From positions 1,583-65,582 of the forward strand of contig JAHFDP010000012.1 of the NCBI GenBank assembly GCA_023248955.1: 64,000 nt of DNA, given 5' to 3'. Shown here one piece after another: positions 135 to 47,825 of this stretch; the first letter of the stretch is position 1, and each line of letters begins with the position of its first letter. Source of the DNA: Deltaproteobacteria bacterium. GTDB lineage: Bacteria > Myxococcota > Myxococcia > Myxococcales > JAHFDP01. Under the pieces are notes generated by a model, which saw only the letters and a program-made list of their open reading frames with translations, made no database searches and was not told the origin of the DNA. Made by a program: the position numbers and the translations under genes.

Positions 135-941
135 TTAGGCTCGCACGTTGGTGGATTCGAAAATGCGGTCGGCGTTTTTTTCCACGAACCCGTCGTAGAG
201 TTTTTCCGTCGAGGGATCGGTGTAGCGCTTCGCAAATTCGTAATAGCAACTCGGAATGACGCGGCGCGTGTCGGCGAAGGCGACCTCCACGCGGCTCGCC
301 ACCGTCGACGACTGTTCGAGCAACACCGCCGCGGATCCCTTCACTTCGCCGCCGGAGGTGTTGAGCGCAAAGCCCTGCGTCTTGAGCCAGGCATTGAGAT
401 CGGCGACTTGCGAAAATGTCTTCAAGGCATTGAACGACACCGTGAAGTGATTCACGCGCACGCCGAATGCCACGAGCCACGCACCGTATTCGGACTCGGC
501 GAGGAGCCGTTCGTACGTCGCGTAATCGATGGAGCGCCACGTCGGCAGCCGCGCGAAGAAATCGAACGCGCCGACGGTGGAACCATCAACTTCGGAAACG
601 AGCCCACGTACCGTCTCCTGGAACGCGGACGAAAACGCGCGCGTCCGTAATTGCGAAACGAAGAGCCGCGGATAGTTTCCGCTCGGATGGCTAAACGAAA
701 TCGCGTCGAGCTTCTTGTCCTCGAAAGCGTAGCGACCGCTCTCGCGGTAGCCGAGTGCGACGAAGGGCGCAGCCAGCGCCTCCATCTGAATGGGCGCCAG
801 ATCGAACGTACGCAGTGCGACGTGATCGTTGACCACACGTTCACCGCGCGCTTCGAAAAGCGAGCGAATGCGCTTCGCGTCGGGCGTGGTCATTGAATAA
901 TCGGACCAGAAGTATTCGAACACTTCGTCGAGCGTTTTCAC
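135..941 (-). CDS. DUF1338 family protein, probable 2-oxoadipate dioxygenase/decarboxylase (HglS-like)
   Basis: [15 protein letters not shown] and CYYEFA motifs (His/His/Glu metal ligands); LLEQSST and DRIFEST are typical of DUF1338. Confidence 0.85.
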
Positions 942-1561
942 ATTTCCTCCAGGAGCACCGCGCGCACCGGCGACGCATCGGCACCTTCTAGACGAAGCGG
1001 CAAGGCTACGAGCGTATAGCGGCCCGGCGGAACGTGCGCGAGCACAAGCCCCTCGAGAACGGACAAACCATGGCGCCGAACGGCGTTGTGGCTCTCGAGA
1101 ATCTTGTCTTCGAAGAGATCGATCGATGGCGTATCGATGCCAACCAGGAGTGATCGGTTGTCATACAAGTGATCAATCAACGCGGCGGAGAGCGCGGCGA
1201 AGTCAGTGGTGAAGCGATCGGGATCCGGAAAGGTTCCCGTCTTGAAGAGCACGCGTGGTGCTGCAATAGACGCCATTAGATCATGCGGATGAATTCGCGC
1301 GCCACGCGTCGCCGCGACTTCAATCACCTGACACGGACCGAGATAGGGCGTAAGCGACCGCGCGCCGATGTCCGCACCGGACCGGTCGTAGTGCTTTGGC
1401 GCGTCGGCATGCGCACCCAGATGCAACGTCGTTCGAATTGCGCCGAGGTTGACGCTCGCGCCGTCCGCCATCCTCCACGTTTCTTCGAGCGCGAACGCGA
1501 CGTCGCCAGGCCAGACGCCGAGGCGCGGAGAAACGGCGGGAGAAATATCGATGATGCGCAA
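938..1561 (-). CDS. kynB: Kynurenine formamidase (cyclase family)
   Basis: VWPGD, HLGAHADAP (HxGxHxDxP), GIDTPSID, LEGL and DASPVRA motifs; 4-bp overlap with the downstream gene. Confidence 0.88.
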   Translation of the reverse strand: MRIIDISPAVSPRLGVWPGDVAFALEETWRMADGASVNLGAIRTTLHLGAHADAPKHYDRSGADIGARSLTPYLGPCQVIEVAATRGARIHPHDLMASIAAPRVLFKTGTFPDPDRFTTDFAALSAALIDHLYDNRSLLVGIDTPSIDLFEDKILESHNAVRRHGLSVLEGLVLAHVPPGRYTLVALPLRLEGADASPVRAVLLEEM

Positions 1562-1564
1562 ACG

Positions 1565-2983
1565 CTACTCCGCCGCCGCGATCACTTTGAATTCCACCGC
1601 AATCGGCGTGGGCAGGGCCTTGATGGCGACGGTCGTTCGCGTGGCACCGACACCGGCGAAGTGCTCGCCATAGACGCGATTGAACGTGGCGAAATCGCGA
1701 TCCATGTCGATCAAGTAGACCGTCACGTCGATCACGCGCGCCAACGACGAGCCCGACGCTTCGAGAATCGTCTTCACGTTTTCGATGACCGCGCGCGTCT
1801 GTAATGCAACGTCATACTTTTGTGATCGCCCTTCGGAATCGTGCACTGGACCGCCGGGAATCGAATCCGTTTTCGGATCACGTGGACCGATTCCCGAGAG
1901 GAAAAGCAGACCGCCGACGCGACGCGCGTGCGGATAGGCGCCGACTGGACGCGGCGCGGCGGCGACGGAAATGGCGTCGCTCACGACCGTGGATCCCCGG
2001 GTCAAGCCCGGGGATGACGAATGCGTGACTGAGGACGACGAATGAGTGACCGGGGAGGACGAATGAGTGGCTGCACCTGACGAATTGCCCGTCAGCACGC
2101 CGCGATCGCCTGCGAACACTTCCGCATCCGCCTCATCGAACTCCTGGGCCGCAGCTGCGCGATCAGTCGGTGTGAGCCCAACCACCGCCGCACCCGTTCC
2201 CCAAATCGGTTGGTACGCAAACGCGCGACCTTCGTAACGGTTGTGCTGCCCCATCAGTGCCGCGAGCCACCAGATCGCTTTCAGCTTCTGATCACCGAAC
2301 GCTTGCGCCGAAAATTCACGCGCCAGCTGCGACACATCCTCGAGCCGTCCTTCCCCCAAAAGCTCCACAAGCTTTCGATTCCACTCGTCGTCTTTGCGCG
2401 ACGACACGTGATCCTTCGCTGGATCGATCTCCTCGGTGAAGAGCCGATTCGAAAGTGCAGTCACACTGACTGCAATGGCGCGCTTTCCACTCGATCGCAG
2501 CGCGTCAGACGCTGCCTTGCCAAGCACCAGCGTCTCCGCACGATCCGCGTACATGTTGCACGAGACGATGCAGGCCGGCAGCCGGTTGTCGGGATTGAGC
2601 AACTTGAGAGCGACCACGGATCCGGTGTCGATGGGAAACCCGCGGTACGCCACGGTACGCGTGTGCAAGCCGCGCGCGCGCGCCGCCTTTGCGTAGGCCT
2701 CCGCGTAGTCGGCGTCGATCCGAAAACGGTACGGAATCTCTCCGAGCTCGTGCCACTCCGGATCAACGTGCGTCCACTCCGGCGCGGGATCCGCTTGCAC
2801 TTGGTGGCCGATCACGCTGAGCCACTGCGTGCTGTAAATCAGCAGCAGATCCGCTTCGGCCGCCTCGATCTCCTCGCGCACTTTTTCAAAGGCATCGCGA
2901 ATCGTTTGCCACGCTGGCGATCGCTCCGGCGCCAGCAACGGATGCGGCATACCTGGAACGATATATCCGGCCACGATCGTCAT
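1565..2983 (-). CDS. 2-aminophenol 1,6-dioxygenase alpha subunit fused to a RidA-family 2-aminomuconate deaminase
   Basis: Start MTIVAGYIVPGMPHP at 2983 (ATGA overlap with the beta-subunit stop); LIYSTQWL and HVDPEW resemble AmnA/CnbCa. C-terminal ~135 aa (PVGAYPHARRVGGLLFLSGIGPR...RTTVAIKALPTPIAVEFK) is RidA/YjgF type. Confidence 0.85.
   Translation of the reverse strand: MTIVAGYIVPGMPHPLLAPERSPAWQTIRDAFEKVREEIEAAEADLLLIYSTQWLSVIGHQVQADPAPEWTHVDPEWHELGEIPYRFRIDADYAEAYAKAARARGLHTRTVAYRGFPIDTGSVVALKLLNPDNRLPACIVSCNMYADRAETLVLGKAASDALRSSGKRAIAVSVTALSNRLFTEEIDPAKDHVSSRKDDEWNRKLVELLGEGRLEDVSQLAREFSAQAFGDQKLKAIWWLAALMGQHNRYEGRAFAYQPIWGTGAAVVGLTPTDRAAAAQEFDEADAEVFAGDRGVLTGNSSGAATHSSSPVTHSSSSVTHSSSPGLTRGSTVVSDAISVAAAPRPVGAYPHARRVGGLLFLSGIGPRDPKTDSIPGGPVHDSEGRSQKYDVALQTRAVIENVKTILEASGSSLARVIDVTVYLIDMDRDFATFNRVYGEHFAGVGATRTTVAIKALPTPIAVEFKVIAAAE
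1988..2020. repeat. REP-like palindrome inside the coding linker
   Basis: cgtggatccccgggtcaagcccggggatgacga is identical to 61220-61252; encodes SSPGLTRGST in frame. Confidence 0.85.
2016..2078. repeat. Three imperfect 21-bp tandem repeats (THSSS-containing peptide units)
   Basis: Units beginning gacgaatg at 2016, 2037 and 2058. Confidence 0.75.
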
Positions 2984-3876
2984 GGCGCGCTCCGCTTCGG
3001 ATCCCATTCGACAACGGCATTGCCAGTCCCGATCACGGTTCCGTACGCATGAACCTGTGCCGGATAGGTGGGCATGCCGAGCGCGGACAAAAGCCACGTC
3101 AGCGCACCCGACTTCGCTTCGCTCTCGGTCTGATCAAGGAAATCGGGCAGCTCGTCCATCAGCTCGCGCGTCTTGCCATGGCGCATCAGTTCCAAAACGC
3201 GCATGTCCCAGAGGTATTGCCCGTGGTGATAGATGTGTTCCTTCGACATGTCCTCGGGCGGATCTGGCTCGACGGTGAAGTGGCGATGCGACAGCGAGCA
3301 GGACGCGAGGAGCACCGCGCGACGGCCGCTCTTCTCGACCGCGCGTCGTGTGGCCTCGCCGAGCAATGCCATCTGTTCGTTGCCCACTTCGTTGCTGAAA
3401 TAAAAATAGGCGCCGTTCGAGGAGAGTCCCACGATCGGTTTGTTCCACGAGGGGTTGGCTAGATGGCACGCAGTGAGCGTTCCGTAGTCCACGCGAAAAT
3501 GGGGGTTGCGCATCATCTTCGCGGTGAGGCCGGCGTGGCGCGCTTCGTCGTGAATCGCTTCGGCCAGCGCCACGTCGACGTCGAGCTTGTAGTCGTAGCG
3601 AAAGAGGTTCGGAAAAATCGGATCGACCGAGCGGCTCTCGAAATGCGGCACGCCGAGAATGTGGTGGCCGACGTGCGTGCGCCAATGCGGTGAATGGACG
3701 ATGAGGACATCGAATTCTTTCGTGGCGAGGCTTTGGCGGAGTCGCTCGTAGCCCCAGCGCAAAACGTCCCAGCCGCCCTCGGAGCGCGGTTCGTTTTGTG
3801 GCGGATTTTCTCCGTACACGAGATGCGGCGGATGCGGCGCGAGCGCGCCGAGAACAATTGAACCGCCTCCGCTCAC
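2980..3876 (-). CDS. amnB: 2-aminophenol 1,6-dioxygenase beta (catalytic) subunit
   Basis: APHPPHLVYGENPPQNEPRSEGGW, HSPHW, SVDPIFPNLFRY, FRVDYGT, LSHRHF and YGTVIGTGNAV closely match the AmnB/CnbCb sequence as I recall it. Confidence 0.93.
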   Translation of the reverse strand: MSGGGSIVLGALAPHPPHLVYGENPPQNEPRSEGGWDVLRWGYERLRQSLATKEFDVLIVHSPHWRTHVGHHILGVPHFESRSVDPIFPNLFRYDYKLDVDVALAEAIHDEARHAGLTAKMMRNPHFRVDYGTLTACHLANPSWNKPIVGLSSNGAYFYFSNEVGNEQMALLGEATRRAVEKSGRRAVLLASCSLSHRHFTVEPDPPEDMSKEHIYHHGQYLWDMRVLELMRHGKTRELMDELPDFLDQTESEAKSGALTWLLSALGMPTYPAQVHAYGTVIGTGNAVVEWDPKRSAP

Positions 3877-3902
3877 GTATTGCCTCCGATCACCTTTGTA
3901 TT

Positions 3903-4130
3903 CACAGAGGTTGTGAAGAAATCCTCACAACCTCTGTGTTTTGAAGGGTCGGGCCGCCGCCCGCCCCTCTGCGCCGAGTGAATCGGCGCATGTACGGCGC
4001 TCAATGATAGCGCCGTCGGCCCACGTGGTTGCGCTGGAAGCGCTCGGTCGGACCCCGGGCTCACCCCACCCGCCGCCACGGCTTTCGCCGCGTCGCTGTG
4101 AGCGAAGGATGAACAATTCACAGGCTCACA
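3903..4130. mobile_element. Putative MITE-like structured insertion between amnC and amnB
   Basis: Ends gaggttgtgaa (3907-3917) and ttcacaggctc (4117-4127) form a 9/11 inverted repeat; perfect 14-bp hairpin 3903-3916/3925-3938; further hairpins at 3970-3990 and 3994-4016. Confidence 0.5.
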
Positions 4131-5565
4131 CCTTCACGCAAACATTTTTCGATTCACTAAAAAATTCGAGCGAATGCACTCCGCCTTCGCGGCCGACTCC
4201 ACTGTCTTTCACGCCGCCAAAGGGCACGCGCAGATCCCGAAGCAGCCAGGTGTTCACCCACACGGTTCCGGTTTCCAACGCCGCGGCGACACGATGCGCG
4301 CGCGAAAGATCGCGCGTCCAGAGCGACGCCGAGAGTCCGTAGCGAACGCCGTTGGCAATCTCGAGCGCTTCGGTTTCGCCTTCGAACGGATGGACTGTCG
4401 CCACCGGACCGAAAATCTCCTGCGTGGCCGTGCGGCTCTTCGTTGAAAGTCCGGCGATGATCGTTGGCTCGAGAAACGCGCCACGATCAAACGGCGGCGC
4501 GAGCGAAGGACGCTTACCACCACAAAGAATCGTCCCGCCTTCGGACTTCGCGAGCGTCAAGTAACCCTCGACTTTGTCACGATGCGCCGCTGAAACCAGT
4601 GCGCCCAGCGTCGTCTCCGGGGAGCGCGGATCGCCAACACGCATGGCGCGCACGCGAACGACGAGCGCTTCCACGAAGCGATCGTAAATCGATCGATCGA
4701 TCAAGATTCTCGATCCACAGAGACAAATCTGGCCCTGATTCAGAAAAGCCGCGCGCGCCGCACCTTCCACCGCCGCGTCGAAATCGCAATCCGCAAAAAT
4801 GAGCGTGGCGTTCTTCCCGCCGAGCTCGAGCGAGAGCTTCTTGAACAACGGTGCCGCGGCGTGCGCTACCCGCGCGCCGGTAGCCGTGCCGCCGGTGAAT
4901 GAAACCGCCGCGACGTCGCGATGCTCGATGAGCGCCTGACCAGCCTCGGCGCCGAATCCATGAACGAGGTTGAACACCCCAGCAGGCGCCCCGACCTCTT
5001 TGAAAATCTCCGCCAACACGGACGCCGTGAGCGGCGTAAGCTCGCTGGGCTTGGCCACCACGGCATTGCCCATCACCAGCGCTGGCGCGGCTTTCCACGA
5101 CAAAAGATAGAGTGGCAAATTCCATGGCGTAATGAGCGCAACAACGCCAAGCGGTCGCCGCAGTGTGTAGTTGAGCGCGCCGTCCATCTCGTGCGCGGCG
5201 GTGGACGTGTGGCGCGCGGCGCCGGCGAAGAAACGGAAGTTGGCCACGGCACGCGGAATGTCGAGCGTGGCCGCGAGCTTCACGGGCTTGCCAGTGTCGA
5301 GCGATTCCAGCTGGGCGAGTTCGTCGGCACGCGCGGCGATTCGGGAGGCAACGGCGTCGCAGAGATCGGCGCGTTCGGCGACGGTTGTGCGCGCCCACGA
5401 AGCGGAAGCTTTGCGCGCCGCGGCGACGGCGTGATCAACATCCGCCGCGTTCGAACGTGGAATCTTGGCGATGCACTCGCCCGTCGCCGGCGCGATGTCG
5501 TCGAGGTAAACGCCCGACGCGGGTGGAACGAAGGCGTTGCTAATGAAGTTCGCCTTCGACGTCAT
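4126..5565 (-). CDS. amnC: 2-aminomuconic semialdehyde dehydrogenase (ALDH8/HMSD type)
   Basis: ITPWNLPLYLLSWK, SFTGGT, LELGGKN, NQGQICLCGSR, EIFGPV and WLLRDLRVPFGG; start taken at MTSKANF. Confidence 0.9.
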   Translation of the reverse strand: MTSKANFISNAFVPPASGVYLDDIAPATGECIAKIPRSNAADVDHAVAAARKASASWARTTVAERADLCDAVASRIAARADELAQLESLDTGKPVKLAATLDIPRAVANFRFFAGAARHTSTAAHEMDGALNYTLRRPLGVVALITPWNLPLYLLSWKAAPALVMGNAVVAKPSELTPLTASVLAEIFKEVGAPAGVFNLVHGFGAEAGQALIEHRDVAAVSFTGGTATGARVAHAAAPLFKKLSLELGGKNATLIFADCDFDAAVEGAARAAFLNQGQICLCGSRILIDRSIYDRFVEALVVRVRAMRVGDPRSPETTLGALVSAAHRDKVEGYLTLAKSEGGTILCGGKRPSLAPPFDRGAFLEPTIIAGLSTKSRTATQEIFGPVATVHPFEGETEALEIANGVRYGLSASLWTRDLSRAHRVAAALETGTVWVNTWLLRDLRVPFGGVKDSGVGREGGVHSLEFFSESKNVCVKV

Positions 5566-5611
5566 GGGCGGGCTCCCATCGGGGTGCACATAACCTGGAC
5601 TCACTTTCGGT

Positions 5612-5687
5612 CCCCCCAACCTAGCCCTCCCCCGCAAAGGGGGGAGGGGATACTTCAGGAGGGGACACTTCAGGAGGGGCCGCTTCA
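5612..5687. repeat. REP-like C/G-rich palindrome plus 3 x 15-bp tandem repeat forming the 3' end of the asparaginase-like gene
   Basis: ccctcccccgcaaaggggggaggg hairpin; ggagggg-NNN-cttca units at 5643, 5658 and 5673 (PPEVS/PEAA peptide repeats). Confidence 0.65.
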
Positions 5688-6766
5688 GGGTAGGGGGAAA
5701 TCGTTTTATTCCACTGAATATATCGGTCCCGATCTGGATCCCATTCGTCCCAGGTCGGAATCGTCTCCAACTTTCCCAACAGCACCTCCGGCACCAGCCC
5801 CGGCACGATGAACGCCTTCTGCCGATGCAGCGGATAGGGATTGCGCAGATCGAATCCGAGCACGCCCAGCACCGACCGGGCGATGGTCCAGCTGGCGCGC
5901 GCGTTCCAGCCGTGCGCGATCTTGATCACCACGCCAAGCCCCTCGGGAAAATCGGGATGCACGACGGAGAGCCCGAGCAACCCGTCCGCGCCCTCTTTCG
6001 CGAGGACGCGGCCTTCGCACGCTTTGAGAATCGTGCTGTCGAGACGGTTGAAGCCGCCCACAAGATCGGGATGGCGCATCATCGCTTCCCAGATCCAGTC
6101 GTCGTCGCGGTGCGCCGAGAGCGACGCGAAGAGCACCGCCAGCTCCGAAACCGTGTTCGAGGCCGTCGGCAATCCACAACCATCGCGCGCGATCCTAAGC
6201 GGAGTCCAATCCGCGCCCAACTGACCCCGTATTACATCCAATAGCGATTGAAATACACGGTGACTCGGCAACGTATAGCCCGCGCGCGACCAGCCAAGCA
6301 GCCGGCAGCCGAGCAGAATCGCGGCATGCTCGCCCGAGCAGCAGTGGTACCAGCGCCGCGGGCGCCGCACCTGCCTACCAAATTGCACCAGCGGAACGTC
6401 GAGCGGCGTCTGCATGAGCCCGCGCTCCGACTCGGCGAGCAGCGACTGTGCCGCGGCCACATGTTCGACGTCGCCGTTATGGCTCGAACAAGCGATAGCC
6501 TTCTGCCGCCAATCGGTGACCGGCGCCAGTGCCTCCGCAAACACCTTCATCATAAGCGGCTTCATCATGCTGCGGCCGTAGCAGAGAACGTTTCCGCCGA
6601 AGGAGTGAATGAGCTTGCCGCCGTTGGCCCAGGCCACCGCGCCGTGAACCGTGGTCTCCGAAATATCGTTGCGCCGGTAGTCGACGAGCGGCTCCCACTC
6701 GACGTCGCGTCCAGTGGGAATTCCCGGCGCGCGGACGCCGAGCGGGCTTGCCGGATACAGACTCAT
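5621..6766 (-). CDS. Asparaginase II (Rhizobium etli-type, class 3) family hydrolase
   Basis: RSMMKP (RSxxK), SSHNG, CCSGEH (family motif NCSGKH), DGCGLP, AKEGADG. Confidence 0.85.
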   Translation of the reverse strand: MSLYPASPLGVRAPGIPTGRDVEWEPLVDYRRNDISETTVHGAVAWANGGKLIHSFGGNVLCYGRSMMKPLMMKVFAEALAPVTDWRQKAIACSSHNGDVEHVAAAQSLLAESERGLMQTPLDVPLVQFGRQVRRPRRWYHCCSGEHAAILLGCRLLGWSRAGYTLPSHRVFQSLLDVIRGQLGADWTPLRIARDGCGLPTASNTVSELAVLFASLSAHRDDDWIWEAMMRHPDLVGGFNRLDSTILKACEGRVLAKEGADGLLGLSVVHPDFPEGLGVVIKIAHGWNARASWTIARSVLGVLGFDLRNPYPLHRQKAFIVPGLVPEVLLGKLETIPTWDEWDPDRDRYIQWNKTISPYPEAAPPEVSPPEVSPPPFAGEG

Positions 6767-7983
6767 AACGCCGTCCCGAGCCGCGGCACCACGCGTTCGG
6801 TGAATGCCGTCATGTTGCGAATCACGCGCGCGTTGTCGTGGTTGAAAAAATCGAACCAGAGCATCAAGCGATCGTCGGGATGAAAACGCGCTCGAAGTTG
6901 CGCCGCGATTTCGTCAGCGTCACCAATCACCGCGTTGTCGGCGGCCTCGTCGACTTTTTTCGGATCGAGCGTTCCCTCGAGTGCGGTCCAATAAGCCGAA
7001 AGCGCGGCGCGCGCTTCCACGCGAGCAGCCGCGCGACGCGCCTCGACCGAAAGATCATGTTCTTCGTTGAGGAACACCAGCACCGTGCGCGGCATGTTGC
7101 TGCGTCGCCACGGGCCGCCGGAGGGATGATAAGTGCGCGTCAGCCGTCGATGCGTGTCCTCGATGATCTCGGGCTTGGTGATGGAGAGATTGAAAATCCC
7201 CACCGGACCAATCGCCTGCACTTCTTCTTGAAGCCGCGGATCGTGCGAACCCAGCATCGGGACAACCAGTTCGCGTCGAAAATCTTGCGGAATGATTTTC
7301 AATTTTTCGAACGACCAGCGGCGCGGCACTTCGATCGCCGCGCTGCTCGAGCCAGCGGCTTCTTGCACGCGCGCCCAATCGGCGTCGCTGCGAAAATCGG
7401 CGCGCGACAATTTCGTCGGACGCACGTTTTCGCTCGACAGCGTGTCGCCACGGACGAGCCGCAAGAAAACTTCCGCGGCCTCGGCGAAAATTTTTCCTTT
7501 GAGGGCTGGCCAAGCGGCTTCTTCCACGGCGCTGCGCGGAACGATACCCGAAGCGCGGTTGATGAAATCGAAGCGTCCCGCCGCGATGCCGACGTGAATG
7601 CGCCGTCGCTCGACCGGATCGAGTCCGTGCAACGCCGTGAAGGCTGCCACACGTTCCGCTGCCGCGACCGGACCACCGTTGCAGAGAATGTTCATCACCG
7701 CTGAGCCGGTTTCGATACGGCGCGTGCGACGAAACACCTGATGCGAGAGCTGCAAGAAATCAACGTTGAGACCGACCTCACCCTGCCAGCTGGGAATCAC
7801 CGGATGCGCGTGCGACTTCTGCACTTCGCTGGAAAGGTGCGACTCGGCAATCCAGGCCACGCCGTAACCGAGCGCGTCGGCCGCTTCGACCTGCGCGAAG
7901 AAGTTGCGAAACATCTCCGCTTCGCTCGGCAGGTAACCGGCGACCGGCGTCTGGCTGATGGAGAAAAAGACGTTGAAGTTCAC
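6763..7983 (-). CDS. Luciferase-like (LLM class) flavin-dependent monooxygenase
   Basis: QVEAADALGYGVAWIAESH, TRRIETGSAV, AAAERVA and FTERVVP are typical of LLM TIM barrels; 4-bp overlap with the asparaginase-like gene. Confidence 0.82.
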   Translation of the reverse strand: MNFNVFFSISQTPVAGYLPSEAEMFRNFFAQVEAADALGYGVAWIAESHLSSEVQKSHAHPVIPSWQGEVGLNVDFLQLSHQVFRRTRRIETGSAVMNILCNGGPVAAAERVAAFTALHGLDPVERRRIHVGIAAGRFDFINRASGIVPRSAVEEAAWPALKGKIFAEAAEVFLRLVRGDTLSSENVRPTKLSRADFRSDADWARVQEAAGSSSAAIEVPRRWSFEKLKIIPQDFRRELVVPMLGSHDPRLQEEVQAIGPVGIFNLSITKPEIIEDTHRRLTRTYHPSGGPWRRSNMPRTVLVFLNEEHDLSVEARRAAARVEARAALSAYWTALEGTLDPKKVDEAADNAVIGDADEIAAQLRARFHPDDRLMLWFDFFNHDNARVIRNMTAFTERVVPRLGTAL

Positions 7984-7993
7984 GTATTACATC

Positions 7994-8785
7994 CTATATA
8001 CTTTGTAATCTTCCGCCGTCGACCGCCAGGCTCTGCCCGCGAATGAACGACGCCGCCGGCGAAACCAAGAACGCGATAGCCGCTGCGATCTCTTCGGGTC
8101 GCGCCAGTCGTGCTTCCGGAACCGCCGCGATCCATCCCGCTTCGATCTCCGCGATCGATCGACCCGTGCGCTTGGCCGTAAATTCGCCGAGCTCCGTGAG
8201 CCGCTCGGTCGCCGTGTAACCGGGCAAAATGTTGTTGATGGTCACGCCCGGAGGCAGCTCGCGCGCCAGCGTCTTCGACCAACCCGCCATGGCGGCACGC
8301 ACCGTGTTGCCGACTCCGACACCAGCGATCGGCTCGCGCATCGAGGTGGAAAGTACATTCACGATACGCCCGAAACCGGCGGCGCGCATGCCCGGAACGG
8401 TTGCGCGCACGAGCAGATGCGCGGAGAGGAGCACGCCGCCAAAGCCCTTCTGCAAATCAGCTTCGGTGACGTCGAGTAGACTCTTCGGCGCTGGACCACC
8501 GTTGTTGTTGACGAGCACGTGAACGGGGCCGTGATCGCGCACCAGGGCGTCCACCGCGCTCTGCAACGCGGTGCGATCATCGAGATCGATCGCCAAGTAG
8601 CGCGCATCGCTCGCACCGGCGACGCGCAACTGCGGCAACAATTTTTCGAGCGCATCGCGGCGCCGCGCGAGCACCGTCACCTGCGCGCCAAGCGAAGCAA
8701 TGGCAAGTGCAGCCGCTCGTCCGATACCCGCGCTCGCACCAGTCACCAGTGCGTGTCGCGATTTCAGTTGGAGATCGAGACCCAT
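7994..8785 (-). CDS. SDR family oxidoreductase (atypical active site)
   Basis: VTGASAGIG, LVNNNGGP, GNTVR in place of YxxxK, NNILPG, LAVDGG; start at MGLDLQL. Confidence 0.85.
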   Translation of the reverse strand: MGLDLQLKSRHALVTGASAGIGRAAALAIASLGAQVTVLARRRDALEKLLPQLRVAGASDARYLAIDLDDRTALQSAVDALVRDHGPVHVLVNNNGGPAPKSLLDVTEADLQKGFGGVLLSAHLLVRATVPGMRAAGFGRIVNVLSTSMREPIAGVGVGNTVRAAMAGWSKTLARELPPGVTINNILPGYTATERLTELGEFTAKRTGRSIAEIEAGWIAAVPEARLARPEEIAAAIAFLVSPAASFIRGQSLAVDGGRLQSI

Positions 8786-8825
8786 GGCGCTCGTGAATAA
8801 CTCAGGCGGCGCCTCTTGGCGAGCG

Positions 8826-8844
8826 TCCGGCGGCACGCGCCGGA
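8826..8844 (-). promoter_or_regulatory. SECIS-like hairpin for the second UGA
   Basis: TCCGGCG-CGTGC-CGCCGGA starts 11 nt downstream of the UGA; same CGUG loop start as the first hairpin. Confidence 0.65.
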
Positions 8845-8846
8845 AG

Positions 8847-9071
8847 TCAGACGGTTCAAGTCTTTCCGTCCCAACCGATCGTGACCTGCCCATTGCGCAC
8901 GATGACTGGCGCACACCGCTCGCCCCCGTTGAGCTTCTTCATCGTCGCGAACGCGACGCGATCGCGATGCACGTCGAAGTAGCGAATCGTCGCCGATTTT
9001 CCGAGCGCCTCACGGGCGCGTGTCGTGTGCGGTCAAGTATCCGTTCCATAGATCAAAATTTCGTCGGCCAT
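8847..9071 (-). CDS. Glutaredoxin-like selenoprotein with two Sec residues (UXX-star type)
   Basis: Manual translation MADEILIYGTDT-U-PHTTRAREALGKSATIRYFDVHRDRVAFATMKKLNGGERCAPVIVRNGQVTIGWDGKT-U-TV*; GGAG RBS upstream; TGA at 9035-9033 and 8858-8856. Confidence 0.88.
9005..9019 (-). promoter_or_regulatory. SECIS-like hairpin for the first UGA
   Basis: GCGCC-CGTGA-GGCGC starts 13 nt downstream of the UGA; GU in the loop. Confidence 0.6.
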
Positions 9072-9792
9072 GGACGACTCCTAGCGAATTCGGAACCGCA
9101 ATGAACCTACCCAGCCCGTGCAGGCAGTCGCAAGCCTTTGCGTGATGGACCTCGCGCGCCCGTGTCCACTCTTCGCGCGCCGCTTGCCACAACTTCACCG
9201 CACCGCGAACGCTCGGTCCGTCGCCCGCACGAAATTCCAAACCGGCTTCGTCGCCTGCCGTCCAAGCGACGCGCGCAATCGCGGGACCGTCGATCCACTG
9301 TTTTCGCGGGAACGGCGCGAGCTCCAACCGATCGCCCACCCGTCCATTCGCGCCCGCAAGCAGCGCGCCGCTGATGCCCACATCGAGGAGCCGTGCGATT
9401 TTCGCTGGACGATCGCCGCACCGAATCCTCACCAGCTGATTGGTGGCGATGCGCCGATGGCGACGACCGGCGGTTCCCTCCGGCAAGCTCCAATGCTCGA
9501 GAAAATACGTCGCCGAAAAAGTGAGCCACGTCCCGTTCGTCGACTTCCGCTCTTTGGCGAGCGCGTTTCCGCGCAAGATGGTCCGCTGCTCCGTGCTACG
9601 GCAGGCGATCTCCAAAATGACCGGAGCGCCCTTCGCGACACTCATTGTTGGGTCGGGAAAAAAGAGCAGGGCGCGCTGATCCTCCAATAGGAAATGCCGC
9701 AAAATCTGAGCTGGCGAATCGAATTGGTAACGCAACAGCGTTACGCCGCGCGGTGAGGTTTTTTCCGTGGCCAGTGCGCGTGAAGCGGACAT
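9010..9792 (-). CDS. PilZ-domain protein
   Basis: RRHRR (RxxxR) and DVGISG (DxSxxG-like) motifs; ARVAW...GLEF; start uncertain. Confidence 0.65.
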   Translation of the reverse strand: MSASRALATEKTSPRGVTLLRYQFDSPAQILRHFLLEDQRALLFFPDPTMSVAKGAPVILEIACRSTEQRTILRGNALAKERKSTNGTWLTFSATYFLEHWSLPEGTAGRRHRRIATNQLVRIRCGDRPAKIARLLDVGISGALLAGANGRVGDRLELAPFPRKQWIDGPAIARVAWTAGDEAGLEFRAGDGPSVRGAVKLWQAAREEWTRAREVHHAKACDCLHGLGRFIAVPNSLGVVHGRRNFDLWNGYLTAHDTRP

Positions 9793-9939
9793 TGTTACCG
9801 GATCTCCCGCCACACATGACGTTGTGCGGCACCGAGATCAGCAACTTGCAAACCTCACGCCAGGCCGCTTCGCGCGTACCGTGCGCTACGTATGCGTCAA
9901 AATGATGATTGCCTGAAAAAAATGTTTTAACGCAACCGG

Positions 9940-17529: not shown

Positions 17530-17629
17530 GGTAGCGCGTCCGGTGCTGGTGCCCGGCTCGGTCTTCAAAACCGATGGCACGTTCTTCAAAAGCGCGTTCG
17601 GGCGGTTCGATTCCGCTGCGCTACCGCCA
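17530..17629 (+). tRNA. selC: tRNA-Sec (anticodon TCA)
   Basis: 8-bp acceptor GGTAGCGC/GCGCTACC + G-CCA; D-loop TGGT; anticodon arm TCGGT-CT-TCA-AA-ACCGA (TCA at 17565-17567); long variable arm; T arm GGCGG-TTCGATT-CCGCT. Confidence 0.93.
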
Positions 17630-17635
17630 CGCTAT

Positions 17636-18985
17636 TCAATGGATTAAGCGCGCGGGCTGCAACTTGAGATAGACGAACGCGCCGAGCGGAACGCGCGTTC
17701 CATACTCGACCGCCAGCGCTTTGGGGACGACGCCCACATTGAGCCGCACGCCGATTGCCGGAACGATTGGCGAGCCAACGTCGATACGATGCAAGAAACC
17801 AAGCGTCGCGTTGAACACACGAAAGACGCGCGCGGGATTCCCCGGCACCACCAGATCGCCGCCGGATTTTTCCACGTACTCCAAGCGAAGGTAGGGAACG
17901 TCGAGCCCGCCCAGATCGAAATTTCCCTCGAGCAGGGCGCTGTCCAAGGCACCGATGGGCTCGAGGTTGCGGCCCCACACCGCCGTCGCGTCGAGCGTGC
18001 CATCCTCGAACAGCGGCGCGCTCCAGAGTGCCGATGCCGTCAGGCGACCGAAGTTCTCGCCGGGCGCCAACGCCTCGGGGCTGCGCAGGAACGCATACGA
18101 AACCTGCATACTCGTATGCAACGTAGGATTGCCCGAGAGCCGCAGTGCATAGGAATCGAGCGGACCGAAATCGAAGTCCCAGCGGTTTTCGTCGGGCTCG
18201 CGGCCGTTGAAAAGCGAGGCCTCCAGCTTGAGCGCGCGCGTCAAGAAGCCAGCGGTGAACACGCCGAAGGAGACGTGCGTGGAATCCTGCCAGTGGTGAC
18301 CGATGGGCGGCAACGGATCGTTCATCGCGGACGCGCGATGCATGAACGCGGGCGGACCAATGGCGGGCTCGCCGGCCGGCGCGGCGTAGAGCTCGAGGCC
18401 GATCGACTCACCGAGCGGATGGCGGTAACGCGCGGCGACTTCCATGAAGAGATCGTGCGGATGCTGCACGTCGTGCAACGGCACGCCGCCGTAGGTTTCG
18501 CCACTCTGCAAAAGGAGCGGAACGCCTGCACCACCCGCCGTCAGCGGCTCGGCGGAGAGCATCGTGCGCAGCGAAATTTCACCGCCCGCGAAATCGTGCG
18601 CGGCCATGCCCATCAGCCAATTCGTGGAGACGCCGCGGCTGTCCCCGCGCGGACCGGACTGCTCGTCGAAGCCCAAAGAAAGCGCGCCGTGCAGCATCAA
18701 CATCCATTGGCCGGCCGTCCAATGCGCGGCGTAAACGGGTGTGGCATCCGGCATCCAACTGGTGCCGGATCCTTCGCGGCCATGTGGAAAACGCCACCAA
18801 GTCGATTCGCTAGCATCCTCGTGGTGGTGATGCGCCGGTGCGGCGGCGAGCGTCATTCCACAGCGCGGACAAACGCCCGGTTCATCCGCGCGAATGTCCG
18901 GATGCATCGGACAGACGTAAGCGGCGGCTTCCTCCGCGAGCGCCACGGTTGGCTGCACCACGAGGCAAACGACGCTGATTCGCAT
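17636..18985 (-). CDS. Exported protein with a heavy-metal-binding domain and a probable outer-membrane beta-barrel
   Basis: Signal peptide, YVCPMHP...PGVCPRCGMTL, HHHHE; then GSGTSW, QHPHDLFME, HHWQDSTH, FNGREPDE; start uncertain. Confidence 0.7.
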   Translation of the reverse strand: MRISVVCLVVQPTVALAEEAAAYVCPMHPDIRADEPGVCPRCGMTLAAAPAHHHHEDASESTWWRFPHGREGSGTSWMPDATPVYAAHWTAGQWMLMLHGALSLGFDEQSGPRGDSRGVSTNWLMGMAAHDFAGGEISLRTMLSAEPLTAGGAGVPLLLQSGETYGGVPLHDVQHPHDLFMEVAARYRHPLGESIGLELYAAPAGEPAIGPPAFMHRASAMNDPLPPIGHHWQDSTHVSFGVFTAGFLTRALKLEASLFNGREPDENRWDFDFGPLDSYALRLSGNPTLHTSMQVSYAFLRSPEALAPGENFGRLTASALWSAPLFEDGTLDATAVWGRNLEPIGALDSALLEGNFDLGGLDVPYLRLEYVEKSGGDLVVPGNPARVFRVFNATLGFLHRIDVGSPIVPAIGVRLNVGVVPKALAVEYGTRVPLGAFVYLKLQPARLIH

Positions 18986-19142
18986 CGCCAGGACAAACGC
19001 GGTGCGGGCCAACCGGTGACCGCGCGCAACTCGACGCACAATGAATTCAGCGAGCATGCGCGATTCTGCCACTCTCTATCGACAACGGCCAAGCGTTCGC
19101 GTGGGAGATGCGTGGAACGTTCCGCCGCAGTAAAAAGAGGCC

Positions 19143-46960: not shown

Positions 46961-47825
46961 CCCTTCGCGCGCCCAGCGATTCGAAGAGCTTCACCGCGTT
47001 GGGATCGCTCCAGTCACGGGCACCGACGAACTTCAAGCGCAAACGGCCCTGCCCGTCGAGGACGTAGGTTTCGGGAAATTTGTTGGTGCCATAGCGCGCA
47101 GCCAGATGGCGCGTGGGGTCGAGCAGCACGTCGTAGGAAAGTTTTGCGCCGGAGAAAAAGCCGTCGATCGCCGGCCAGCCCTCGTCGACGCTGACCGCGG
47201 CGAGCGCGAAGGTGGCCGGGTCGAGAGCGCGCGAGAGCGCGGAGAAGCTCGGCATCTCGTCGCGGCAGGGCGGACACCAGGTGGCCCAGAAGTTCACGAA
47301 GACGACCTTGCCACGATAATCAGCGAGCGTGCGCACGCCGCCGCCGCGGACCGGAAGCGTGAAAGCCAGTGCCTCGGTTGGCGGATCGATCAGATCGCCA
47401 TCGAGCGCCAGCCGGGCCCGCTCGGCCACGCCGCCAAATTCGCGCCAGAGGTTGGCACCGACCACCGCGGCCATTCCCCCGAGCGCCAGCGCTGCGAACG
47501 CCGCTTTCATCCACCGCGGCACGACCCACATTCGCGGATCGTCGGGGAGACCGGAGTAGTATTTTTTGGTCGGAGCGGCTTCCATGTCCCCCTGCCGGGA
47601 AAGCCGCCGTTCCAGCACGGCGGGATCGATCCGATGCTTGAATGCCCGACGCCCGTCGATTTCCACCACCGGGATGTCGTACTGGAAGCGTTCGAATACT
47701 GCGGGATCACGCTCGATGTCCACCTCGGTGAGATCGAAGGCGTGGCGCGTCTGCGCGGCCACGAGCACCCCGTGCGCGACGTCGCAGAGATGGCAACCCG
47801 GCTTGGTGTAGAGGGTGACACGCAT
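46938..47825 (-). CDS. Glutaredoxin-like (DUF836) domain fused to a TlpA thiol-disulfide oxidoreductase
   Basis: MRVTLYTKPGCHLC...DIPV, TM helix, then VNFWATWCPPC...FPETY; one frame, no stop. Confidence 0.8.
   Translation of the reverse strand: MRVTLYTKPGCHLCDVAHGVLVAAQTRHAFDLTEVDIERDPAVFERFQYDIPVVEIDGRRAFKHRIDPAVLERRLSRQGDMEAAPTKKYYSGLPDDPRMWVVPRWMKAAFAALALGGMAAVVGANLWREFGGVAERARLALDGDLIDPPTEALAFTLPVRGGGVRTLADYRGKVVFVNFWATWCPPCRDEMPSFSALSRALDPATFALAAVSVDEGWPAIDGFFSGAKLSYDVLLDPTRHLAARYGTNKFPETYVLDGQGRLRLKFVGARDWSDPNAVKLFESLGARRAKLPAAP

Follow-up and report, generated by a model that had tools for sequence, protein, structure and literature searches.

The locus and its reading frame

On the minus strand of the window (the whole stretch of 64,000 nucleotides of DNA that was analysed) lies a gene of 74 codons that does not appear in the ordinary ORF listing. 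It occupies 8847..9071, the terminating TGA included, and was delineated on the basis of a translation in which TGA is read as selenocysteine (Sec, U), an HMM match, the predicted fold and GC3. An earlier note had proposed that two TGA codons hide the gene from the ORF track, and this was borne out: both lie in frame between 9071 and 8847, and the frame is not listed as an ORF. The span of 8826-9071 given by that note represents the coding sequence plus the second of the two hairpins described below. From the ATG at 9071-9069 the product reads MADEILIYGTDT-U-PHTTRAREALGKSATIRYFDVHRDRVAFATMKKLNGGERCAPVIVRNGQVTIGWDGKT-U-TV, after which a TGA follows at 8849-8847. Direct reading further reveals a Shine-Dalgarno-like AGGAG (9078..9082, minus strand), separated from the ATG by a spacer of 6 nt. 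GC3 peaks in the selenoprotein frame (0.71), and the values for the neighbouring genes range from 0.68 to 0.78.

The first UGA (9033..9035, minus strand) is codon 13 and translates to Sec13 within the context T-U-P-H-T. The second (8856..8858) is codon 72; Sec72 is the third-last residue and is followed by ACC GTC, which gives the tail the layout TGA ACC GTC TGA at 8858-8847. The third TGA (8847..8849) is taken to be the true stop on account of its fixed position in 36 of 36 family genes (see below). Two SECIS-like hairpins accompany the UGA codons, both on the minus strand. Hairpin 1 (9005..9019; GCGCC / CGUGA / GGCGC) is situated within the coding sequence, 13 nt past UGA no. 1, and hairpin 2 (8826..8844; UCCGGCG / CGUGC / CGCCGGA) lies wholly 3' of the stop, which is 2 nt ahead of it, and 11 nt past UGA no. 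2. The distances thus agree with the 11-13 nt that had been noted earlier for these GC-rich hairpins with a CGUG loop, and in both cases the loop starts 18 nt after the UGA.

A 267-residue ORF at 9010-9813 on the same strand has a gene-like GC3 (0.68) and yielded only a sub-threshold match to PilZ (E 0.036). This ORF extends by 62 nt into the 5' end of the selenoprotein gene, in a different frame, and terminates at a stop codon inside the loop of hairpin 1.

The genome to which the window belongs is 95.6% complete. It encodes selA (TIGR00474, 512.3 bits), selB (TIGR00475, 311.5 bits) and selD (TIGR00476, 384.3 bits, with one in-frame TGA), all above the curated cut-offs. A tRNA-Sec with anticodon UCA is present in the window itself, at 17530..17629 on the plus strand (ARAGORN; Rfam RF01852, 70.2 bits against a gathering score of 47), where the earlier note had also placed one. 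With selA, selB, selD and tRNA-Sec the Sec-decoding trait of the host is complete. The selD gene (contig C45) is itself a selenoprotein gene and carries a hairpin (GGCGCAG / GUC / CUGCGCC) about 26 nt past its TGA, the loop of which is unlike CGUGN. The tRNA-Sec is adjoined by a gene for a 478-residue protein (17636-19072, minus strand) with a heavy-metal-binding domain (PF19335).

Family membership and predicted fold

Scored with each U replaced by C, the 74 residues matched the NCBIfam model NF041114 ('UXX-star selenoprotein family 1') from position 1 to 70 of its 70 positions, with 78.9 bits against a cut-off of 72 (E 2.5e-22), which supports the UXX-star type to which the gene had been assigned before. 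The pass is a narrow one, since in a six-frame search of the genome with the same model, in which stop codons are not scored as residues, the gene reached only 67.1 bits and stayed under the cut-off of 72. The parent model NF041212 gave 64.3 bits (cut-off 66) and the Pfam model Glutaredoxin (PF00462) 29.3 bits (cut-off 22.9). TIGR02181, which describes the classical dithiol glutaredoxin Grx3, gave 25.3 bits against a cut-off of 90; the C-P-Y-C motif is missing and a Thr is found at the second Cys. Two weak glutaredoxin-like matches to the parent model that are free of TGA occur in the same genome, both below the cut-off: one on another contig (C109:18507-18716; 40.9 bits) and one at about 47688-47819 of the window (C40:49270-49401; 21.5 bits).

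An AlphaFold2 model obtained with 17 aligned sequences (mean pLDDT 85.3) contains the succession of elements E-H-E-H-E-E and no third helix. The best structural matches of this model in Foldseek were glutaredoxins (TM 0.69-0.74), and the best sequence matches in a profile search against solved structures were small glutaredoxins and NrdH (E-values 2e-7 to 1e-5). The predicted fold is of the minimal glutaredoxin/NrdH type (beta1-alpha1-beta2-alpha2-beta3-beta4), with the usual C-terminal helix missing, and in the model the short U-T-V tail with Sec72 appears to stand in for this last helix. The redox motif is U13-P-H-T16, of which T16 is invariant across the 17 aligned sequences; the motif therefore is one without a resolving Cys. 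The residues C-A-P-V-I-V take up positions 53-58. The elements on which the gene had been recognized originally, being a product of 74 residues with U-P-H-T, APVIV and U-T-V-stop, can all be read in the translation, and the proposed glutaredoxin fold is supported by both PF00462 and the AlphaFold2 model.

Conservation of the two UGA codons and of the tail

Searches with a cut-off on the match recovered the gene in 15 genomes of 60 relatives within the same order, and in 34 of the 301 genomes (the window's own included) of a sample of the phylum. Most of the matches in the latter sample came from a single family, in which 28 of 40 genomes had one, and every match over the cut-off contained at least one TGA. 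The comparison described here is based on 36 genes, namely 35 from relatives of the same phylum and the one in the window; these are kin and the counts over the 36 genes are thus non-independent. The first redox position (codon 13) is specified by TGA in 20 genes, by TGC in 14 and by TGT in 2. At the C-terminal position TGA was found in 36/36 and a Cys codon never. Homologs with Cys or Sec at both UGA positions, by which the earlier note had proposed to judge its reading, are thus what was recovered.

The layout of the tail is equally strict. A stop codon is present exactly two codons past the C-terminal TGA in all 36 genes (TGA-NNN-NNN-stop), and the second codon of the tail encodes Val or Ile in each of them (GTC 20, GTG 14, ATC 2). 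The first codon is variable, with synonymous variants (GGC/GGG/GGA/GGT and CAT/CAC) among those that occur. In contrast to the tail, the distance from the stop to the hairpin is not fixed and ranges from about 0 to 9 nt. The fixed length and the synonymous variation are as expected of a tail that is translated. The stop codon itself is TGA in 28 genes, TAG in 8 and TAA in none; the occurrence of TAG implies that translation ends at this position, and the third TGA had rightly been put forward as a true stop. Stop usage among 1247 long ORFs of the window's own genome (TGA 477, TAG 430 and TAA 340) is fairly even for a GC-rich genome.

The two UGA positions (the first as TGA or as a Cys codon), the tail and a hairpin past the stop recur in 35 out of 35 relatives of the same phylum. 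The two-Sec layout, the tail and the post-stop hairpin are also shared by two further genes at around 50% identity, the records of which bear the names of other phyla.

The two hairpins

Considered by itself, the window sequence offers weak evidence for the hairpins, which is not beyond chance. The fold energies of the two are unremarkable (z-scores of -0.36 and, for hairpin 2, -0.57), and a stem as long as that of hairpin 2 was obtained in 41 of 1000 dinucleotide shuffles. Among the 1247 long ORFs of the genome, 3.2% are followed, at the corresponding position past the stop, by a stem of 7 bp or more, and 0.64% by such a stem with GT in the loop. It is the comparison across relatives, and not the window sequence alone, that lifts the case far beyond chance.

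Just past the stop, all 36 genes show a perfect stem that is 6 bp or longer. It starts 8 to 18 nt past the Sec UGA, most commonly at 10 or 11 nt, while the loop starts 16-18 nt past the UGA in 27/36 and reads GGUC in 24/36. A MAFFT alignment of 17 cores of this second hairpin misaligned three sequences with a CGUGN loop, and the pairs were therefore counted by a script. The 36 genes yielded 18 distinct six-pair cores, in which 108 of 108 cells are canonical and more than one type of pair occurs at all six positions, a count that is biased towards paired cells because the best hairpin was taken for each sequence. By this count, hairpin 2 is conserved with compensatory changes. A scan for promoters and terminators detected neither a promoter-like site nor a terminator at hairpin 2 of the window. 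Many relatives carry the hairpin in the narrow interval that separates two convergent genes, and there it could also act in transcription termination.

The support for hairpin 1 is of a different kind. The sequence GCC-CGU-G is present at +18 from codon 13 in 19 of the 20 genes that have Sec at this position and in none of the 16 that have Cys, and CGT makes up 6.1% of the Arg codons (46/759) in 15 neighbouring genes. A stem with 4 or more pairs, ending directly ahead of GCCCGTG, was found in 15/20 Sec forms versus 4/16 Cys forms. The contiguous stem at the fixed position is only 3 bp long in 5 of the 20 Sec forms, the 3' arm is placed differently in different lineages, and RNAalifold gave no useful consensus (-1.13 kcal/mol) on the 11 Sec-form regions to which it was applied (the final set has 20). 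Support for the first SECIS would accordingly lie in a conserved motif at a fixed distance rather than in a shared fold, and a constraint at the RNA level at +18 is apparent only where codon 13 is UGA. Of the two SECIS-like elements that had been suggested, the second is thereby backed by its presence in 36/36 genes and its compensatory changes, and the first by the GCCCGTG motif, not by an RNAalifold consensus.

Gene neighbourhood

Downstream of the selenoprotein gene lies a cluster of eight genes on the same strand (window 135-8785, minus strand). The first is an SDR gene (7994-8785), which starts at 8785 and is separated from the selenoprotein gene by a gap of 61 nt (8786-8846) in which the scan detected no terminator-like site. 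It is followed by genes for a luciferase-like oxygenase, an asparaginase-II-like protein, an aldehyde dehydrogenase, two LigB-type proteins, a cyclase and an HGLS-family protein, in that order; one of the two LigB-type dioxygenase genes is fused to a RidA/L-PSP domain. The combination of a LigB pair, an aldehyde dehydrogenase and RidA resembles 2-aminophenol-type meta-cleavage clusters, and the label 'catabolic operon', which the earlier note had attached to the cluster, is a reasonable one.

The position of the gene, 61 bp upstream of this cluster and on the same strand, is as had been described. The implied link to the cluster was not recovered elsewhere: a tblastn search with five of the window neighbours found no homologue in any of 37 relatives' loci, and the association with the operon therefore appears peculiar to this genome. 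A Pfam scan of relatives' loci covered 123 ORFs from 12 of 16 loci (the near-duplicates L018, L019, L020 and L026 were omitted). Within the loci scanned no conserved operon partner was present. What many relatives have instead is a response-regulator/GGDEF gene in divergent orientation, together with a TPR gene that converges from the opposite strand.

It could be imagined that a ring-cleavage operon took in the redoxin gene at its head, with the redoxin as its dedicated reductant that would, for instance, re-reduce the oxidised Fe of the extradiol dioxygenase. Small ferredoxins re-reduce the oxidised Fe of the extradiol dioxygenase in some meta-cleavage operons. We nevertheless consider such a recruitment improbable. 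If true, it would provide the UXX-star family with its first concrete physiological partner, and the invariance of the tail Sec (36/36), as opposed to the replacement of the first Sec by Cys (16/36), would mark the tail selenol as the group that touches the substrate.

Decoding, function and alternative readings

Based on the above, the gene is very probably genuine and translated: it would encode a protein of UXX-star family 1 with 74 residues, two of them Sec, and have a separate hairpin for each UGA. Bacteria insert Sec with the help of SelB, which, loaded with Sec-tRNA, recognises a hairpin placed at a defined spacing 3' of the UGA. Given this established mechanism and the anatomy of the gene, each UGA would be recoded by SelB and Sec-tRNA(Sec) docked on its own hairpin, the first of which would operate from within the coding sequence and the second from entirely past the stop. 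As hairpin 2 is located wholly beyond it, the stop sits within the UGA-to-hairpin spacer of about 11 nt, an arrangement that would relieve hairpin 2 of any need to encode protein. Between the third UGA and hairpin 2 there are only 2 nt, presumably too few for SelB-directed recoding, so that this UGA would terminate translation. Two UGA codons that are 9 nt apart would in this way be read differently, one as Sec and the other as stop, apparently by spacing alone.

With respect to function, Sec13 (Cys in part of the relatives) and Sec72 may constitute a redox-active pair, which would be a diselenide in the Sec forms and a selenenylsulfide in the Cys forms, with the tail Sec facing the substrate. 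We favour this pair because the motif has no resolving Cys and because the tail, to judge by the layout of glutaredoxin structures, would emerge from the sheet, at beta4, beside the active site. The proposal is tentative, and we would put its chances at slightly under even. The fact that the tail Sec was never replaced by Cys in the sequences examined points to a chemistry that requires selenium.

The same invariance (36/36) also fits a different role, in which the two Sec residues bind a soft metal or metalloid (candidates being Hg, As, Cu and selenium itself) and the protein is a chaperone or scavenger instead of an oxidoreductase. The UXX-star Sec residues have indeed been suggested as possible metal-binding ligands in the part of a 2026 review that concerns them (PMC13188914), and next to its cis-Pro loop the window copy carries an additional Cys, Cys53, that is found in 0 of 16 aligned relatives. 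Against this, no metal-resistance genes flank the gene, either here or in the relatives' loci examined. Moreover, redox selenoproteins are usually marked by just such an interchange of Sec and Cys where the redox motif begins. We therefore regard metal binding as the less likely of the two roles, with perhaps one chance in a few.

A further possibility concerns the extent of the protein. Only UGA no. 1 would then be Sec, UGA no. 2 would be a real stop that ends a protein of 71 residues, and the hairpin behind it would be a terminator or a stem that stabilises the mRNA. Such a reading would comply with the normal placement of bacterial SECIS elements within the coding sequence, as given in the relevant passages of PMC13188914, with the location of the hairpin in a short gap between convergent genes in several relatives, and with the lack of significance of the window hairpin when taken alone. 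It leaves unexplained, however, why the TGA-NNN-NNN-stop is of fixed length in 36/36, with Val or Ile kept despite synonymous change, when the spacer behind it varies in length. A terminator would also have no need for the GGUC loop that is kept in 24/36, no T run follows the stem, the distance between UGA and hairpin is constant across three different gene neighbourhoods, and the curated NCBIfam model covers the tail (profile 1-70 of 70). Considering these points, a 71-residue product is very improbable. Finally, the view that the TGA codons are nonsense codons, in a glutaredoxin pseudogene in decay or in a frame that is open by chance, deserves next to no credence: standard ORF calling does miss the gene and no RNA run is listed among the public runs that contain the stretch, the sole one being a DNA run from which this assembly may derive, but both TGA positions are kept in 35 relatives of the same phylum and in two genes from other phyla (as TGA or a Cys codon at the first), a strong AGGAG stands 6 nt ahead of the ATG, the codon-position GC bias is like that of the neighbouring genes, the fold is predicted with confidence and the Sec machinery is intact.

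Comparison with known systems

The reading of a two-Sec member of UXX-star family 1 can be compared with what has been reported on such proteins. In the 2026 review (PMC13188914) the family goes by the name 'Distant Grx-like protein 1' and is listed with two Sec and a UxxT motif, with reference to Zhang & Gladyshev 2008, and UXX-star family 2 is listed with one Sec; for other UXX-star families the review refers to Haft & Tolstoy 2025. The same passages describe the function of such selenoproteins as uncharacterised, in line with the earlier statement that no function has been established, and place bacterial SECIS elements within coding regions. The main-text passages of Zhang & Gladyshev 2008 (PMC2398784) do not describe the family by name, and in a full-text literature search the term 'UXX-star' was found only in the review. 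Haft & Tolstoy 2025 may already treat the tail and the post-stop SECIS.

The window gene would thus be a new and divergent member of a selenoprotein family that has already been catalogued, and the established knowledge of this family is not changed by it. Its practical value is one of annotation: gene callers skip such genes and the selenoproteome of the lineage is undercounted as a result. The comparative set provides what looks like a clean natural example of a bacterial SECIS that is wholly past the stop, and as far as the alignments go the family constitutes a natural exception to the rule that these elements reside within the coding region.

With the other members of UXX-star family 1 (NF041114) the protein shares the full-length HMM match, the Sec/Cys-x-x-T motif, the cis-Pro, the G-x-U-x-[VI]-stop tail and a hairpin for each UGA. 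Within the present set it is the most divergent copy, with an identity of 37-49% to 16 relatives. It differs from them in the extra Cys53, in its gene neighbourhood, in the CGUGN sequence of both loops, where GGUC is commoner elsewhere, and in its tail, which reads D-G-K-T-U-T-V and has an insertion of one residue before the tail Sec relative to the family consensus G-G-S/T-U-G-V. The UXX-star families 2 and 3 and the HUGP/GUXX-star fusion have the glutaredoxin-like domain and the U-X-X-stop ending in common with it, yet the protein scored far under the cut-offs of the respective models (NF041211, 45.4 against 100 bits; NF047338, 40.3 against 97; NF045501, 29.1 against 325). Proteins of the YruB/NrdH type (TIGR02196; 7c10/7c12 cGrx1, 3ic4 and 1h75 NrdH) are of the same fold and size. 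They possess a CxxC dithiol and a C-terminal helix, whereas the window protein has a Thr at the second Cys and a three-residue Sec tail, and it reached 31.1 bits with TIGR02196 (YruB) against a cut-off of 88.55.

The closest parallel to the tail is offered by animal thioredoxin reductase, which has a C-terminal Gly-Cys-Sec-Gly redox centre, and of which the mammalian enzyme has been expressed in E. coli with an engineered SECIS past the stop codon. The likeness is one of mechanism only. In both cases a Sec would be carried at most three residues from the C-terminus on a flexible tail, and in the engineered E. coli construct, as proposed for the window gene, the recoding hairpin lies past the stop and the stop lies inside the UGA-to-hairpin spacer. 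The folds, on the other hand, are unrelated, and the partner Cys of thioredoxin reductase is adjacent to the Sec, whereas the presumed partner in the window protein is 59 residues away.
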